Source of the DNA: a virus
Length of the DNA stretch: 64,000 nt
Direction: 5' to 3' (one strand)
Virus record (IMG/VR): IMGVR_UViG_3300027777_000034
Span: 1-64,000 of that record
Positions 2,399 through 19,690 of this stretch are shown in pieces. A program made the position numbers and the translations under genes. Below the pieces are notes generated by a model. It was not told the DNA's origin, searched no databases, and was given only the letters and a program-made list of their open reading frames with translations. Position 1 is the first letter of the stretch, and every line of letters begins with the position of its first letter.

Positions 2399-2555
2399 TT
2401 TAAATGTACAGCTAACACCAGATGAGATATCCATGATAGCTAATAGCTTAAGCTATGAACTTAGTGCGGTTACCAACAAAGATTTAGATTCTTCTTACAA
2501 AAAAGAATTAAAAAAGCTTTATGAAAGATTAAGCACTCTTGAGGATGAAATCTAA
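2391..2555 (+). CDS. small helical protein, 54 aa (not in ORF track)
   Basis: AAGGAG SD; MNNLNVQLTPDEISMIANSLSY...; TAATG coupling to next ORF. Confidence 0.65.
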   Translation: MNNLNVQLTPDEISMIANSLSYELSAVTNKDLDSSYKKELKKLYERLSTLEDEI

Positions 2556-2857
2556 TGATTGAAATCAAACAGGTGGGCAATCAATGGAGAATCAAAAGGG
2601 AAGAAGTAGGCAAAGGTTATGCTTATAGGGATATAGATAAGGTATATCTTCATATACTTAGGGGCAGAATGAATGAGCATGGCGTTATCAATTGTGCTGA
2701 TCTGTATATCTATGTGGATGGACATAACCCTGTTGATGATAAGCACATACGGAGTTTTAAGACTGGTGCTACCTATCTAAATTTAGCTGTGCCAAACAAT
2801 GAGCTTTACTACAGTATGTATACAATCAAAGATGTAGTTTTTGGAAATAATTACTAA
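2555..2857 (+). CDS. hypothetical protein
   Basis: TAATG coupling. Confidence 0.65.
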   Translation: MIEIKQVGNQWRIKREEVGKGYAYRDIDKVYLHILRGRMNEHGVINCADLYIYVDGHNPVDDKHIRSFKTGATYLNLAVPNNELYYSMYTIKDVVFGNNY

Positions 2858-2881
2858 ATAATTTGAAGTGTGAAACGAATA
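2855..2881 (+). promoter_or_regulatory. early promoter
   Basis: TAAATA-N15-CGAATA; its TAA is also the upstream stop codon. Confidence 0.75.
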
Positions 2882-2904
2882 CTAAGTTAAGGGAAACGGC
2901 TTTG

Positions 2905-2933
2905 CGTGAACTAAGGGCGTTCCTTAGTTCACG
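2905..2933 (+). promoter_or_regulatory. 5' leader hairpin
   Basis: perfect 12-bp stem CGTGAACTAAGG/CCTTAGTTCACG. Confidence 0.6.
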
Positions 2934-2958
2934 ATGCTGGACTAACAAGGAGATTACT

Positions 2959-3231
2959 ATGAGCAACAGTAAGTTTACGAGAAATGAAAAAACCAGTTTG
3001 TTAATGGCATGGGATATCGTTGCCTTGCGTGAAGATTTAAATGCGAATGACTATCAAATGATTTGTGGCATCCTTAGAGGCGATGGATACCAAGCATATG
3101 ACCTCATGACAGAAAAAGATTTTGATAATGAGTTTTATGAAAAATATGATGAACAAATTAAATATTCTACAAAAATCCTTCAGTTAGCTCATGTGTTGAA
3201 TGGTGAACCAATTAATTTACTAAAAGTTTAA
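2959..3231 (+). CDS. hypothetical early protein, paralog of 607..909
   Basis: AAGGAG SD before ATG 2959; visible similarity to 607..909. Confidence 0.75.
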   Translation: MSNSKFTRNEKTSLLMAWDIVALREDLNANDYQMICGILRGDGYQAYDLMTEKDFDNEFYEKYDEQIKYSTKILQLAHVLNGEPINLLKV

Positions 3232-3244
3232 CAAGGAGAGTTAT

Positions 3245-3415
3245 ATGAGATTATCGCTTAAGTACGAACAGAAGTTAGAAAAAAATAAGTTCCTTGATGT
3301 ATTAGACATTGGAGTTATATCTACAGAGATATGCAGACTTAAGAATCTGCTTAGATCGATTGGCATTAGTGCAGAAGATAAAAGTCTTGAAAAATTAAAA
3401 TTGTGGAAAGACTAA
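3245..3415 (+). CDS. small hypothetical protein, 56 aa (not in ORF track)
   Basis: AAGGAG SD; MRLSLKYEQK... Confidence 0.6.
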   Translation: MRLSLKYEQKLEKNKFLDVLDIGVISTEICRLKNLLRSIGISAEDKSLEKLKLWKD

Positions 3416-13116: not shown

Positions 13117-13863
13117 ATGTTTAACGAAGATGATTTAAATAAGTGGAAAAACTCAAAACCATTTAATCATTTAGTAATAGACAATTTTTTAGAAAACTCA
13201 TTGGCTATGCAAATAGCTGATGAGTTTCCTTCTATTAATGATGACTTTTGGTTTTATTACAACAATGCTGTTGAAGTTAAAAAAGCCTGTGATATGTGGT
13301 GTAAGTTCCCAAAATCAATATACAAAACAATATTTGAATTAACGAGCAAAGAATTTGTAGACTCTCTATCTAACTTAGTTGGTAAACAAGTTTGGGCAGA
13401 CTATGGGTTAAATGGCGGTGGTATACACGCTATGGGCAATTCTGGAAAATTAAACCCACATTTAGACTACAGCATACACCCAAAGCTTGGACTACAAAGA
13501 AAGATAAATTTAATAATATACTTAACAAAAAATTGGGATACCTCTTGGGGTGGAGCTATAGAGCTATGGTCACACGATGAAGAGAATAATAAACCAAAAC
13601 AGGTTGAAGTTAAAATAGATTCCACTTTTAATAGGGCTTTATTGTTTGATACAACTCAAAATTCATGGCATGGCATATCAGATCAAATCACATGTCCAAT
13701 CGACAAATCAAGAAATTCAATAGCAATATACTATGTTTGTGAGCCAGAGATTGGAAGCGAAGATAGGAATAAGGCTTTGTTTGCCCCAACAGAGGATCAA
13801 AAGGGCGATAAGTTAGTTGAAGAACTTATAAGACAAAGACTTTTGGGGAAATACAAAATATAG
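13117..13863 (+). CDS. 2OG-Fe(II) oxygenase (prolyl-hydroxylase-like)
   Basis: PFNHLVIDNFL, GGGIH, HLD, SWHG, RNS. Confidence 0.85.
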   Translation: MFNEDDLNKWKNSKPFNHLVIDNFLENSLAMQIADEFPSINDDFWFYYNNAVEVKKACDMWCKFPKSIYKTIFELTSKEFVDSLSNLVGKQVWADYGLNGGGIHAMGNSGKLNPHLDYSIHPKLGLQRKINLIIYLTKNWDTSWGGAIELWSHDEENNKPKQVEVKIDSTFNRALLFDTTQNSWHGISDQITCPIDKSRNSIAIYYVCEPEIGSEDRNKALFAPTEDQKGDKLVEELIRQRLLGKYKI

Positions 13864-14331: not shown

Positions 14332-14383
14332 TGCTTTTTAATCTGTAAGAAAAACGCATACATATTTCTTACAAGGAGGTTTG

Positions 14384-15283
14384 ATGTTAAAACTATATGA
14401 TATGTTTTCGGGGATAGGTGGATTTGCTTTAGGGTTTCAAAAGGAAGGTTTTGAAGTAACTGCTTTTGCAGAGTTAGATAAGTATCCTTCTGAAGTTTTA
14501 GCAAAGAATTTTCCAAATATCCCTAATTATGGAGATGTAACAAAAGTAAAGTATAAAAAAGATCAGTTTGATTTGATTGTTGGGGGTTTTCCCTGCACAG
14601 ACATATCTATAGCAAGTCAATCAAAGGAGGGCATATATGGAAAAAGATCATTCTTGTGGAAAGAATTCTTCCGAGCAGTTAAAGATGTTCAACCAAAATA
14701 TTGTGTCATTGAAAATGTCTTTATGCTGCTTGGAAGAGGGCTTGAAACGGTACTTCAAGACCTTGCCAGCATCGGGTACGATGCGACTTATACAACGCTC
14801 GATGCCCAATACTGTGGAACAGCCCAAAGAAGGCGTAGAGTTTACATTTTGGGAGTCCGTGATGGAATCACCTCCAATAGCGATATACTCCAGTTTGGCC
14901 CTCGTAGTACTAGAACCTGTCAACAAAGCGTGGAACTTGTCAAAAAGAGCTTTGAATGGAATTTTAAAAAGAGCATGTGGTTCAAAGAAACCTTTGCCTA
15001 CTTTACTCGCCAAAGAAGTGATCAGTTTGATGAATGCGGAGTGTCATCAACCCTAACAAAAAGAGATTATAAGTCTTTTACAGATTTAGTAGTATCTGAT
15101 GGCAACATACGCAGAGTAACACCTACAGAAAGGCTTCGCCTTATGGGTTTTCCTGACGATTGGCATATTGAAAATGCTTCAAGTACTGATAAGTATAAAT
15201 ATAACGGTATGCATGTACCTTCAGTTCAATACATAGCAAGATGTTTAAAGGAGTACGAAAGATGTTTGAATTTGCAAAAATAG
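14384..15283 (+). CDS. DNA (cytosine-5) methyltransferase, alpha chain
   Basis: motif I FSGIGG, IV GFPC, VI ENV, VIII QRRRRVY, IX RRVTPTERLRLMGFP; atypical motif X. Confidence 0.92.
   Translation: MLKLYDMFSGIGGFALGFQKEGFEVTAFAELDKYPSEVLAKNFPNIPNYGDVTKVKYKKDQFDLIVGGFPCTDISIASQSKEGIYGKRSFLWKEFFRAVKDVQPKYCVIENVFMLLGRGLETVLQDLASIGYDATYTTLDAQYCGTAQRRRRVYILGVRDGITSNSDILQFGPRSTRTCQQSVELVKKSFEWNFKKSMWFKETFAYFTRQRSDQFDECGVSSTLTKRDYKSFTDLVVSDGNIRRVTPTERLRLMGFPDDWHIENASSTDKYKYNGMHVPSVQYIARCLKEYERCLNLQK
14637..15056 (+). CDS. nested out-of-frame ORF resembling the M.EcoHK31I-type methyltransferase beta polypeptide
   Basis: AAGGAGG 6 nt before ATG; TLPASGTMR...SSL...LE...WNLSKRALNGILKRA...KPLPTLL. Confidence 0.65.
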   Translation: MEKDHSCGKNSSEQLKMFNQNIVSLKMSLCCLEEGLKRYFKTLPASGTMRLIQRSMPNTVEQPKEGVEFTFWESVMESPPIAIYSSLALVVLEPVNKAWNLSKRALNGILKRACGSKKPLPTLLAKEVISLMNAECHQP

Positions 15284-15894
15284 CAGAAAAATTTGACGAA
15301 CATTTAGCTGGACAATTATATTGGCATAGCAATTTCGTTAATCATTTCTTGCCTGAGATTGCATCTGTCTTTATGGCAGAAGGAACAAATGTATATGATT
15401 TTGGTGCATCAACAGGTAATGTAGAAGTGGCTTTATCAAGTATGATTAAGTCAAGGAGCATAGATTTTATACCTGTGGAAAAATGTAAAGAGATGGCAGA
15501 AAGATATAAGGGAGAAAGCGAAGTGGTTGTTGATGATTTTTTAAATGTGTATATGGAAGAGTTTTCATTTGCTACATGTATTTTGTCTTTATGTTTTATC
15601 CATCCATCAAAAAGAGAAACATTTATTGATTCTTTAAAAAATAATTGTATGATTGGCGGTGCTTTTATAGTTTTGGAGAAAATGAAATCCAAGGGTGGAT
15701 ATTTAGGAACAGCTTTAAATAGAGTCACATGGCGTAATAAGATTGAAAATGGTGAATCTTTAAAGATGGTAATCAATAAAGAGCTTTCTCTAAGTGGTGT
15801 GCAGTATCCGCTAAGTGAAAAAGAACTTGAAGGATTTGAGTTAATATGGGCTTATGGTGATTTTCGTGCTTATATTTGGTTAAAGGAGTTTTAA
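15262..15894 (+). CDS. CmoA-like (carboxy-SAM synthase family) SAM-binding protein
   Basis: FDEHLAGQL, VYDFGASTG, GGAFIVLEK, KELSLSGV. Confidence 0.7.
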   Translation: MFEFAKIAEKFDEHLAGQLYWHSNFVNHFLPEIASVFMAEGTNVYDFGASTGNVEVALSSMIKSRSIDFIPVEKCKEMAERYKGESEVVVDDFLNVYMEEFSFATCILSLCFIHPSKRETFIDSLKNNCMIGGAFIVLEKMKSKGGYLGTALNRVTWRNKIENGESLKMVINKELSLSGVQYPLSEKELEGFELIWAYGDFRAYIWLKEF

Positions 15895-18185: not shown

Positions 18186-18416
18186 ATGGAAATTGGAAGT
18201 TTGGTTTTTGCTAGAAAATTGAATGAAGCTTTTACTATTTATACCGATTCTGGTAATATAGAGGTTACCATTAAAGAAATAAATACATATTCAAATCAAG
18301 TTAGATTGCGTATTAAAGCACCAAAAAACATTAAAATCATGCGAGATAATGCAGTTGATTTAAAACCAAAAGATATATTGTTCACACCAACAATTCCAAG
18401 ATCGGAGAAAAGATGA
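18186..18416 (+). CDS. csrA: carbon storage regulator CsrA-like RNA-binding protein
   Basis: LVFARKLNE.F.I...IEVTI...QVRLRIKAPKNIKIMR. Confidence 0.8.
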   Translation: MEIGSLVFARKLNEAFTIYTDSGNIEVTIKEINTYSNQVRLRIKAPKNIKIMRDNAVDLKPKDILFTPTIPRSEKR

Positions 18417-19690
18417 ACAGAAGACATTTTATAAAACATACGGCTGGTATTTCTGCACTTTCTTTTGTGGGCAAAGTTAAAGCACAAGAAGAAACACTTA
18501 AAAAGTCTGGAAAAAAACTTATTGTGTTGTGGATGGGCGGTGGTCCTAGTCATATGGATCTTTGGGATTTAAAACAGGGGCAAGCAAATGGTGGTGAATT
18601 TAAACAAATACTCACTTCAGCAAATGGAGTTAGCATTAGTGAAGTTCTTCCAACAATCGCTTCTCAGTTTCACAATTTAGTTGCTGTTCGATCTCTTGTG
18701 ACCAACGAAGGAAGTCATGAGAGAGGAACCGTTTTAATGAATACTGGGCATCAACCAAGCGTTGTTGTGCAGTATCCATCCATTGGATCGGTAACATCTT
18801 CTCTTTTAACATCAAAAGAACTACCACTGCCAGGATTTATTGGTATTGGAAATTCAGCACAAAGAATTGGGCCAGGATTTTTAGGAACAAACCTAGCACC
18901 ATTTACAGTACAAAATGCTGGAACTCCACCAGAAAACATTAAAGCACCAAAGGAAATAGATGATGAAGAAAGACTTAGGAGAAGACAAAGACTGTTTTAT
19001 ACATTGGAAGACGATTTTTCGGAAAGAATTGCACCTCATATTAAAAATAGTGTGGCTAGAGAAGCTATGGGCAATCATGCTCAATCTCATTCTAATATCT
19101 ATGGCAAAGCCTTTGATCTTACACTATCTCCGTTAAAAACAATATTTGAACTAAAAGACGAAAATCCTAAAACGATTGAGTCTTATGGTGGTAGAGGAAA
19201 TAACTTTGGAATGGGTTGTCTTCTTGCTAGAAAGTTAATTTCTAAAGGAGTTAGCTGTGTACAAATCGATTTGGGTGGATGGGATAATCATAGCAATATC
19301 TTTAGTGCTATTAGGAATGGGAATGGGAATCGTCTTGATATGGGCATGGGATATTTGGTCAAGGACTTGGTAGATATGGGTATGTGGAAAGATACTGTAG
19401 TTATGTGGATGGGAGAGTTTGGTCGTACACCCAAGATTAATCAAAATGGTGGGCGTGATCATTGGGCCAGATGTTGGTCTGTGGTTCTTGGTGGTGGTAC
19501 TATCCAAGGTGGACAGGTTTATGGTTCTACAACCGCTGATGGTATGGATATTAAAGACAAACCTTGCAGTATTTCAGATGTTTATGCTACAGTATACAAA
19601 GCTTTGGGTTTAGACCCAATGTTCCAAATTAGGGATAATTTAGGGCGACCAATACCTATATCAGAAGGAAAGGCTTTAGATATATTTTGA
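18413..19690 (+). CDS. DUF1501 family protein with Tat signal
   Basis: MNRRHF; WMGGGPSHMDLWD; GGWDNH; GEFGRTPKIN..GGRDHW. Confidence 0.9.
   Translation: MNRRHFIKHTAGISALSFVGKVKAQEETLKKSGKKLIVLWMGGGPSHMDLWDLKQGQANGGEFKQILTSANGVSISEVLPTIASQFHNLVAVRSLVTNEGSHERGTVLMNTGHQPSVVVQYPSIGSVTSSLLTSKELPLPGFIGIGNSAQRIGPGFLGTNLAPFTVQNAGTPPENIKAPKEIDDEERLRRRQRLFYTLEDDFSERIAPHIKNSVAREAMGNHAQSHSNIYGKAFDLTLSPLKTIFELKDENPKTIESYGGRGNNFGMGCLLARKLISKGVSCVQIDLGGWDNHSNIFSAIRNGNGNRLDMGMGYLVKDLVDMGMWKDTVVMWMGEFGRTPKINQNGGRDHWARCWSVVLGGGTIQGGQVYGSTTADGMDIKDKPCSISDVYATVYKALGLDPMFQIRDNLGRPIPISEGKALDIF

Follow-up and report, generated by a model that had tools for sequence, protein, structure and literature searches.

Can an open reading frame (ORF) that lies wholly inside a phage DNA methyltransferase gene, in another frame, be a gene in its own right, and does its product then serve the enzyme around it? 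This question is raised by the window analysed here, a stretch of 64,000 nucleotides (nt) that forms part of a 72-kb viral record (IMG/VR IMGVR_UViG_3300027777_000034) and to which all coordinates refer. The window comes from a large freshwater phage that has its own DnaB, primase, PolIII-alpha, ThyX and RecA-like genes, and it contains a C5-cytosine DNA methyltransferase gene that encloses a 139-codon ORF. Sequence comparison indicates that this nested ORF is very probably a real, translated gene under purifying selection.

The nested reading frame and its surroundings

The enzyme matches PF00145 in Pfam with an expectation value (E) of 3.3e-55, its residues 4-285 aligning with positions 2-318 of the 324 in the profile, and motifs I, IV (PC), VI (ENV), VIII (QRRRR), IX and X all lie in one frame of the gene. 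In particular, the enzyme (alpha in a first-pass annotation of this DNA) retains a motif IX of its own, as had been claimed there: RRxTPxExxxLxGF is invariant in the enzyme alignment, A4. Among solved structures, none belongs to a close relative of this enzyme; the best match is M.HhaI (E 1.7e-22). ATG 14384 is more likely to be the start codon than TTG 14381, because AAGGAGG precedes it by 4 nt. The features that concern us here are as follows.

14384..15283, + strand: C5-cytosine DNA methyltransferase gene, frame 0, 299 amino acids (aa) from ATG 14384
14373..14379, + strand: ribosome-binding site of the methyltransferase gene, AAGGAGG, 4 nt before ATG 14384
14591-14596 (motif IV, PC), 14711-14719 (ENV), 14825-14839 (QRRRR) and 15110-15151 (motif IX), + strand: enzyme motifs, in alignment-invariant columns
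14637..15056, + strand: putative nested gene, +1 frame, ATG start, 139 codons plus stop
14624..14630, + strand: putative ribosome-binding site of the nested gene, AAGGAGG, followed by the 6-nt spacer gcatat and ATG 14637
14637..14888, + strand: nested residues 1-84, a leader with a sequence dictated by enzyme motifs IV-VIII and low AlphaFold 2 (AF2) confidence
14889..15053, + strand: nested residues 85-139, a C-terminal module that is conserved and has its helices encoded at 14895-14909, 14943-14981 and 15000-15047

The nested ORF is offset by 256 nt from the methyltransferase ORF (14381..15283), which places it in the +1 frame, and is wholly enclosed by it; the ORF listing and the sequence confirm the earlier description of a 139-codon +1-frame ORF with AAGGAGG 6 nt before its ATG. 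This heptamer is made from a Lys-Glu pair of the enzyme by means of the rare codons AAG-GAG, for which the codon usage of the window gives P=0.028. A perfect AAGGAGG occurs nine times in the 64 kb, always on the + strand, and an ATG follows 4-7 nt downstream in eight of the nine cases; in this phage the heptamer is almost diagnostic of a translation start. (Note that it also heads short ORFs at 1648 (22 aa), 9596 (65 aa), 11357 (86 aa), 20730 (71 aa) and 35513 (57 aa), which may be real small genes.) The guanine-plus-cytosine (GC) content of the overlap, described beforehand as visibly raised, is indeed 0.41-0.51 at 14650-14950 versus 0.30-0.36 on either side when taken over 150 nt at a time, a rise that we attribute to stop avoidance together with a second coding layer.

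No interruption of the nested frame was found in close homologues: in all 21 viral loci with enzymes 75-94% identical to that of the window, the +1 frame is open between the same two stops and carries an ATG at the same codon. These loci amount to 12 distinct gene sequences, the window counted, and AAGGAGG is intact in 11 of the 12 (the 75% group reads AAGGAC). The frame is likewise open in locus L049 (89%), in loci L055-L058 (69%) and in L022 (63%), a Clostridia metagenome-assembled genome (MAG). Moreover, four database proteins of exactly 139 aa (88, 81, 79 and 40% identical) are gene calls of the nested frame, made on contigs too short to contain the enzyme.

An ORF of this length is seldom obtained by chance. 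A +1 frame without a stop for 147 codons or more resulted from 0.035% of 20,000 resamplings in which synonymous codons were permuted within the gene, and from 0.015% of 20,000 in which codons were drawn according to the usage of the window. The 84 codons upstream of the module, tested in each of four enzymes (100, 75, 69 and 63% identical), were stop-free in only 0.01-0.08% of resamplings, the upper value corresponding to P(open) 0.0008 for the segment that encodes nested residues 1-84. Because these codons are open against such odds, selection appears to keep the whole ORF open, beyond its terminal part. Of note, TTA is the commonest Leu codon of the phage and specifies none of the 11 Leu residues inside the overlap, versus 6 of the 13 outside.

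Constraint in the nested frame and extent of the family

The clearest sign of coding lies in the module. We compared the two frames in 10 diverse sequences, using an alignment that was built on the nested proteins and favours the nested frame; over the last 45 codons, amino-acid identity was 0.51 in the nested frame versus 0.25 in the enzyme frame, and between the two deep groups it was 0.38 versus 0.09. Pairwise differences at nested codon positions 1, 2 and 3 of the same 45 codons were 0.47, 0.34 and 0.62, respectively, a pattern that is the signature of coding in the nested frame. Upstream of the module these positions differ by 0.45/0.57/0.47 and 0.33/0.57/0.53, the most variable one being the third position of the enzyme. 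The same shift is seen column by column: the entropy of position 3 exceeds that of position 2 in 38 module columns and falls below it in 5 (p 2.5e-7), and upstream the relation is reversed (17 versus 37, p 0.009). The codon alignment also contains switches between codon blocks that preserve the residue (Leu TTR/CTN, Arg AGR/CGN and Ser TCN/AGY), and these are explained only by a nested frame that is read as sense. The enzyme frame, by comparison, is poorly conserved in the DNA that encodes the module, just behind motif VIII. The C-terminal motif singled out in the first-pass annotation thus coincides with the segment that the codon-position and identity data mark as selected in the nested frame. 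Within this one ORF, the dominant constraint changes from the enzyme frame to the nested frame, and for the benchmarking of dual-coding detection the case supplies a clean test set.

Across the module, the nested and enzyme frames are the only ones that are stop-free in all 12 loci. (An antisense gene would share the wobble positions and was considered as a source of the periodicity; it was rejected, since each antisense frame meets a stop in at least one of the 12.) An antisense ORF does nevertheless exist in the window itself.

14648..15013, - strand: 121-aa antisense ORF, a consequence of stop avoidance; its frame is not conserved

That this ORF is open over the same stretch, and that GC is raised across the overlap, would fit the idea that the nested ORF is itself a non-coding by-product of a GC-rich, perhaps recombinant segment with few stops in several frames. 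However, the resampling odds (1e-4 to 4e-4) speak against this idea, as do the conservation of start and stop in relatives that are 63-94% identical, the absence of conservation in the antisense frames, and a nested periodicity and residue conservation that persist across enzymes 25-40% identical with GC contents of 0.33-0.61. We regard a by-product as extremely improbable, and the comparative data appear already to contradict it.

The family extends well beyond the relatives described so far. The nested ORFs of the window and of ten loci served to build a hidden Markov model (HMM), which was run on the 5,259 six-frame ORFs of loci L022-L104. It matched the +1 frame of full-length enzymes 25-40% identical to that of the window in L091, L083, L087/L088, L094, L033 and L099, with E between 1e-11 and 1e-51 and enzyme GC contents of 0.46-0.61; the match of the nested profile in the phage's own genome has E 2.5e-47. 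The module lies where the enzyme frame cannot be aligned between the deep groups. A tblastn search of phage genomes returned 136 records that match the nested protein, and in the three that we inspected, P1 dmt, mycobacteriophage Omega gp127 and the methyltransferase of Caulobacter phage DMCA, the match is in the +1 frame and unannotated. Nested ORFs end approximately 50-65 codons behind motif VIII in the window, the close loci, L022, L049, L055-58, L091, L083, L087, L094, L033, L099, P1, Omega and DMCA.

The consensus of the module family (131 sequences) reads VCSLSDILETGxVPxRYYLSxKACxGILRRAEKRGKxLPxxLxxAL, the version in the window being ...NLSKRALNGILKRACGSKKPLPTLLAKEV..., and the pattern L-S-x-[KR]-A-x-x-G-I-L-x-R-A...K-x-L-P-x-x-L is kept in the nested frame. 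Columns L101, A105, G108, I109, L110, R112, A113, L120, P121 and L124 of A2 and A3 are near-invariant. The HMM search with the nested ORF, which had been proposed as a check, yielded 4,369 clusters (50% identity) at E<=1e-3 and 2,954 at E<=1e-10, none of them named. At 90% clustering, 6,822 of the 8,000 candidates scored had E<=1e-5; these are mostly 150-170 aa long, and the only name they bear is 'hypothetical protein'. The nested gene is one member of a very large family, so far without a name, that consists of +1 ORFs inside the C5-methyltransferase genes of phages and prophages. Since nested ORFs match phrog_16143 of PHROGs v4 (139 positions, labelled 'DNA methyltransferase'; L087 with E 5.8e-7, P0008 with 5.1e-5 and P0140 with 3.9e-5), phage annotators have already clustered such ORFs; phrog_16143 seems to consist of them and to take its label from the surrounding gene, and its record notes neither function nor overlap. 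No published description of the nested gene was found in the open-access full text searched, and methyltransferases are not mentioned in PMC8788219.

Several genes of the family have peculiarities of their own. In the P1 isolate L105 (OP279344.1, 1093-4134), a long insertion that looks like an intein splits the C5 half of Dmt immediately after the catalytic Pro-Cys of motif IV and ends ...VVHN before CQAFS, and the nested ORF begins downstream of it. In Omega (L106, 1667-2971) the enzyme is annotated as gp127 (motifs I-VIII) and gp128 (target-recognition domain (TRD), IX and X), which share a frame and are separated by a stop and two codons. For the gene in Schatzie (L108), which has an HNH gene inside it, the annotation reads 'coding region not determined; unable to determine intron boundaries'. 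In L034/L097 (a Methylocucumis oryzae contig and its IMG/VR twin, 2486-3259), which is probably a decaying prophage gene, the enzyme frame breaks after motif VI and the nested module is in phase with the N-terminal part of the enzyme, behind an in-frame stop. In the 675-aa enzyme of L083 (2414-4438), the stretch encoding the module is followed closely by a large insertion that is rich in Cys and His and looks HNH-like by eye; the nested ORF is intact there.

Probable synthesis of the nested protein and its possible link to the enzyme

The simplest reading of these sequences is that the nested protein would be made by independent initiation on the enzyme mRNA. A Shine-Dalgarno-like sequence and a start codon head the ORF in the clade of the window (AAGGAGG, 6 nt), in L091 (AAGGAG, 10 nt, directly after a stop), in L087 (CAGGAG, 10 nt), in L094 (AGGAGC, 5 nt) and in P1 (GGAG, 7 nt). 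Ribosomes might instead shift out of the enzyme frame, and the product would then be a shortened enzyme (motifs I-VIII) with the helical module at its end; in a few database proteins (P0006, P0012, P0282, P0287 and P0293) the nested frame does follow in frame on motifs I-IV or I-VI. These joined proteins, however, are without motif VIII or V-VIII and look like broken genes, and no slippery run was noticed by eye in the sequence, of which no systematic scan was made. The start signals also argue against a shift. Moreover, independent initiation is favoured because the stretch of 84 codons from the nested ATG to the module is open against odds of 1e-4 to 8e-4, which frameshifting would not require. 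We therefore consider frameshifting quite improbable.

With 131 sequences, AF2 predicted helices at nested residues 103-115 and 122-137 and a short helix at 87-91, with a predicted local distance difference test (pLDDT) score of 94-95 for residues 101-130; residues 1-85 were of low confidence, with block means of pLDDT from 47 to 68. The nested protein is accordingly modelled, with confidence as regards the module, as an unstructured leader followed by a small basic helical hairpin. The nested protein of the window had no match in Pfam or NCBIfam and none at E<=0.01 in PHROGs. The best hit of the nested profile in a PDB sequence search was an unrelated protein (E 0.058), and for the module Foldseek against the PDB gave nothing at E<=0.001. 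VIA-align against 48,161 chains reached at best Z 3.6, with generic helical hairpins, and the ESM Atlas returned 'hypothetical protein' clusters only.

Derivation of the module from an in-frame segment of an ordinary C5 methyltransferase is speculative, the hairpin HMM scoring -0.3 against E. coli Dcm. Note that the sole local hhalign alignment to Dcm (E 0.21, probability 0.3%, not significant) covers residues 309-338, behind motif VIII, which is the position of the module-encoding DNA in the phage enzyme; we take it as a hint at a frameshift origin and not as evidence of one. Motif VIII was found in frame upstream of the module in none of 63 long module-carrying proteins. That the arrangement arose by a compensating pair of frameshifts in an ancestral one-frame enzyme is speculation.

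We propose that a 139-aa protein would be translated from the methyltransferase mRNA by way of its own AAGGAGG, 6-nt spacer and ATG. Its first approximately 85 residues would be an unstructured leader that is forced on it by motifs IV-VIII, with selection only for freedom from stops, and its last approximately 55 a conserved basic helical hairpin. The protein would then dock, as an accessory subunit, on the half of the enzyme that holds the target-recognition region and motifs IX-X, and might be needed for activity. On the sequence and modelling evidence, we put the chance that the nested protein acts together with the methyltransferase at about even; the joint reading, taken with some latitude, of a genuine overlapping gene whose product is an accessory subunit of the enzyme, as beta is in M.EcoHK31I (see below), is one that we moderately favour.

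Three lines of evidence bear on the link to the enzyme. First, the DNA that encodes the module always lies directly behind motif VIII, in enzymes 25-94% identical. Second, 45 of the 63 long proteins with the module (at least 271 aa; classed by regular expressions and by C-terminal PF00145 matches in Pfam) continue in frame into motifs IX and/or X without motif I, IV or VIII upstream. In these proteins, which may be either working split enzymes or the products of broken genes, the module adjoins the target-recognition, IX and X half on its N-terminal side. For one such fusion (P0274, 321 aa, 91 sequences), AF2 gave pLDDT 95-97 for the module and 86-94 for motifs IX-X, with a predicted template modelling score (pTM) of 0.35, and Foldseek matched only its IX-X part, to M.HhaI (E 0.019). 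Third, the complex prediction that had been called for was run with the enzyme and nested residues 76-139, that is, with alpha and the module. It scored 0.59 (runs 0.57, 0.59 and 0.60) against 0.00 for the best control, with at least 51% of contacts shared between runs and a partner pLDDT of at least 69, for a verdict of 'weak support'. Of 80 solved complexes, 58 reached the mark, as did 2 of 110 mismatched pairs; those that reached it with a score of 0.60 or less were only 7 of the 80 and both mismatches, and a pass in this band is 'more often wrong than right unless the guess was likely beforehand'.

This last limit weighs against the proposed reading, as do several other points, among them the bias of the frame comparison towards the nested frame. 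The in-frame fusions are mostly single-member clusters and might have come from pseudogenes with frameshifts or from faulty assembly. Searches of the module with Pfam, NCBIfam, PHROGs, the PDB, Foldseek, VIA-align and hhalign brought up neither a known family or fold nor a motif IX. Synonymous differences between the window and the 75% relative number 31/110 in the overlap, 22/56 before it and 22/58 after it, an apparent drop (0.28 versus 0.39 and 0.38) that is only mild. The nested start lies before motif IV in L087, L091 and L094 and after it in the clade of the window and in L033, although a variable start position fits a leader whose sequence is unimportant. Finally, contigs of relatives in libraries X1, X3 and X4 (of four freshwater RNA libraries searched) cover parts of 14430-15485, and these may be DNA carry-over and are uninformative on strand, ends, transcription start and translation. 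(Separately from this argument, contigs of relatives in X1 and X3 lack 1 nt at 14754 and have 1 nt inserted behind 14757, a compensated pair that alters one codon and restores both frames.)

Some of the same observations would also suit a nested protein that is real and yet independent of catalysis, such as a basic nucleic-acid-binding regulator that times expression or a counter-defence factor. The module is basic and helical, no part of the known methyltransferases is detectably similar to it, nesting by itself guarantees co-inheritance and co-expression, and the complex prediction is weak. Against independence stand the constant place of the module behind motif VIII and the long variants that fuse it in frame to the TRD-IX-X half. 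An independent function, the main rival to an accessory subunit, we judge unlikely; in its counter-defence form the protein would have to be co-inherited with a C5 methyltransferase and might act, for example, against systems that restrict methylated DNA.

The accessory-subunit reading has a more far-reaching version, which we hold as doubtful, in which a major clade of phage and prophage C5 methyltransferases that includes P1 Dmt would be a two-product enzyme. The DNA behind motif VIII would be read twice, once in the enzyme frame as a loose linker and once in the +1 frame as a helical module that is essential and rejoins the enzyme in trans, and the arrangement would have arisen by compensating frameshifts and then been retained for long across cyanobacterial, mycobacterial and enterobacterial hosts.

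In either event, the nested gene is old, very widespread and unnamed, and is present in the model phages P1 and mycobacteriophage Omega. Should its product be a subunit, the phage C5 methyltransferases of this clade may have been expressed and assayed without part of the enzyme, and P1 would offer an immediate genetic test. Should it have another function, phages would possess a new small protein whose physical tie to cytosine methylation is upheld by selection.

Comparison with known systems

The two-polypeptide nature of M.EcoHK31I was reportedly worked out by Lee, Kam and Shaw in 1995. This YGGCCR-specific C5 methyltransferase of E. coli HK31 has, according to two reports, a beta chain encoded inside the alpha gene in another frame, with motifs I-VIII, X and the TRD in alpha and motif IX in beta (PMC2836561, PMC3404938); one of them adds that beta tolerates N-terminal truncations and that its C-terminal part matters (PMC2836561). 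The likeness is that of a small polypeptide encoded wholly inside a C5-methyltransferase gene in a different frame, and the conservation pattern of the nested gene matches the partly dispensable N-terminus of beta. Note that this likeness concerns published architecture and not the beta sequence. The M.EcoHK31I-type arrangement proposed in the first-pass annotation agrees as regards the nested small polypeptide in another frame and differs as regards motif IX: M.EcoHK31I alpha is described as being without motif IX and beta as having it, whereas the phage enzyme has motif IX and none is detectable in the nested protein, which gave no PF00145 match (the copy in the window at E<=0.1; those of L087 and P0008 at E<=1) and aligned with the enzyme alignment in hhalign only at E 0.47. 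A further difference is that the nested family is phage-borne and numbers thousands of clusters.

It had also been suggested that the nested protein, as a beta of the M.EcoHK31I type, gives specificity or forms a bridge to a CmoA-like neighbour and so completes a three-component system.

15241..15894, + strand: CmoA-like or S-adenosylmethionine-methyltransferase-like gene, 217 aa, overlapping the 3' end of the enzyme gene by 43 nt

The arrangement resembles that described for M.EcoHK31I, and the CmoA-like gene is kept in all relatives at least 63% identical that were examined and reach that far. However, besides the missing motif IX, the distant enzymes that keep the nested ORF with no CmoA-like neighbour (L083, L087, L091, L094, L099, P1 and Omega) speak against this model. 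The CmoA-like gene is kept beside the enzyme only in the clade of the window (L001-L022, L049 and L055-L059, down to 63% and including the Clostridia MAG), and the three-component system is therefore not a general explanation; we consider it highly unlikely. The CmoA-like protein, whose match to Pfam Methyltransf_25 (E 0.086) is below the cut-off, may carry out an additional modification of the methylated base or of DNA. At 13117-13863, two genes upstream of the methyltransferase, lies a 2-oxoglutarate-Fe(II) oxygenase (PF13640, E 2.7e-16) that is conserved in the closest relatives (L001-L005, L020), and the oxygenase, the C5 methyltransferase and the second methyltransferase-like gene could form a DNA hypermodification cluster. 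Farther downstream, at 18413-19690, the window encodes a DUF1501 protein (E 2.9e-91) with a twin-arginine-like N-terminus, an unusual auxiliary gene for a phage.

A second comparison is with M.AquI alpha/beta and with artificially split C5 methyltransferases, which show that such enzymes can be made from two chains divided in the proximal variable region behind motif VIII (PMC3404938). The split point is where the nested module and the break between Omega gp127 and gp128 are found, but the M.AquI subunits are consecutive and in one frame, whereas the phage case would be a complete enzyme with an extra out-of-frame product. If the nested protein is a subunit, M.EcoHK31I, the single known case of an out-of-frame methyltransferase subunit, would be the tip of a large class. 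Outside the methyltransferases, the Rz/Rz1 spanins of phage lambda are encoded by a gene and a +1-frame gene embedded in it, and both products belong to one complex; those proteins and their function are unrelated to the present ones, and whereas the spanin complex is demonstrated, that of the nested protein with the enzyme is proposed. To our knowledge, few long same-strand overlapping genes in bacteria and their phages show clear purifying selection, and such genes are discarded by annotation pipelines. What is new in the present case is an out-of-frame gene in a C5 methyltransferase that retains motif IX, far more widespread than the case described previously and found also in P1.

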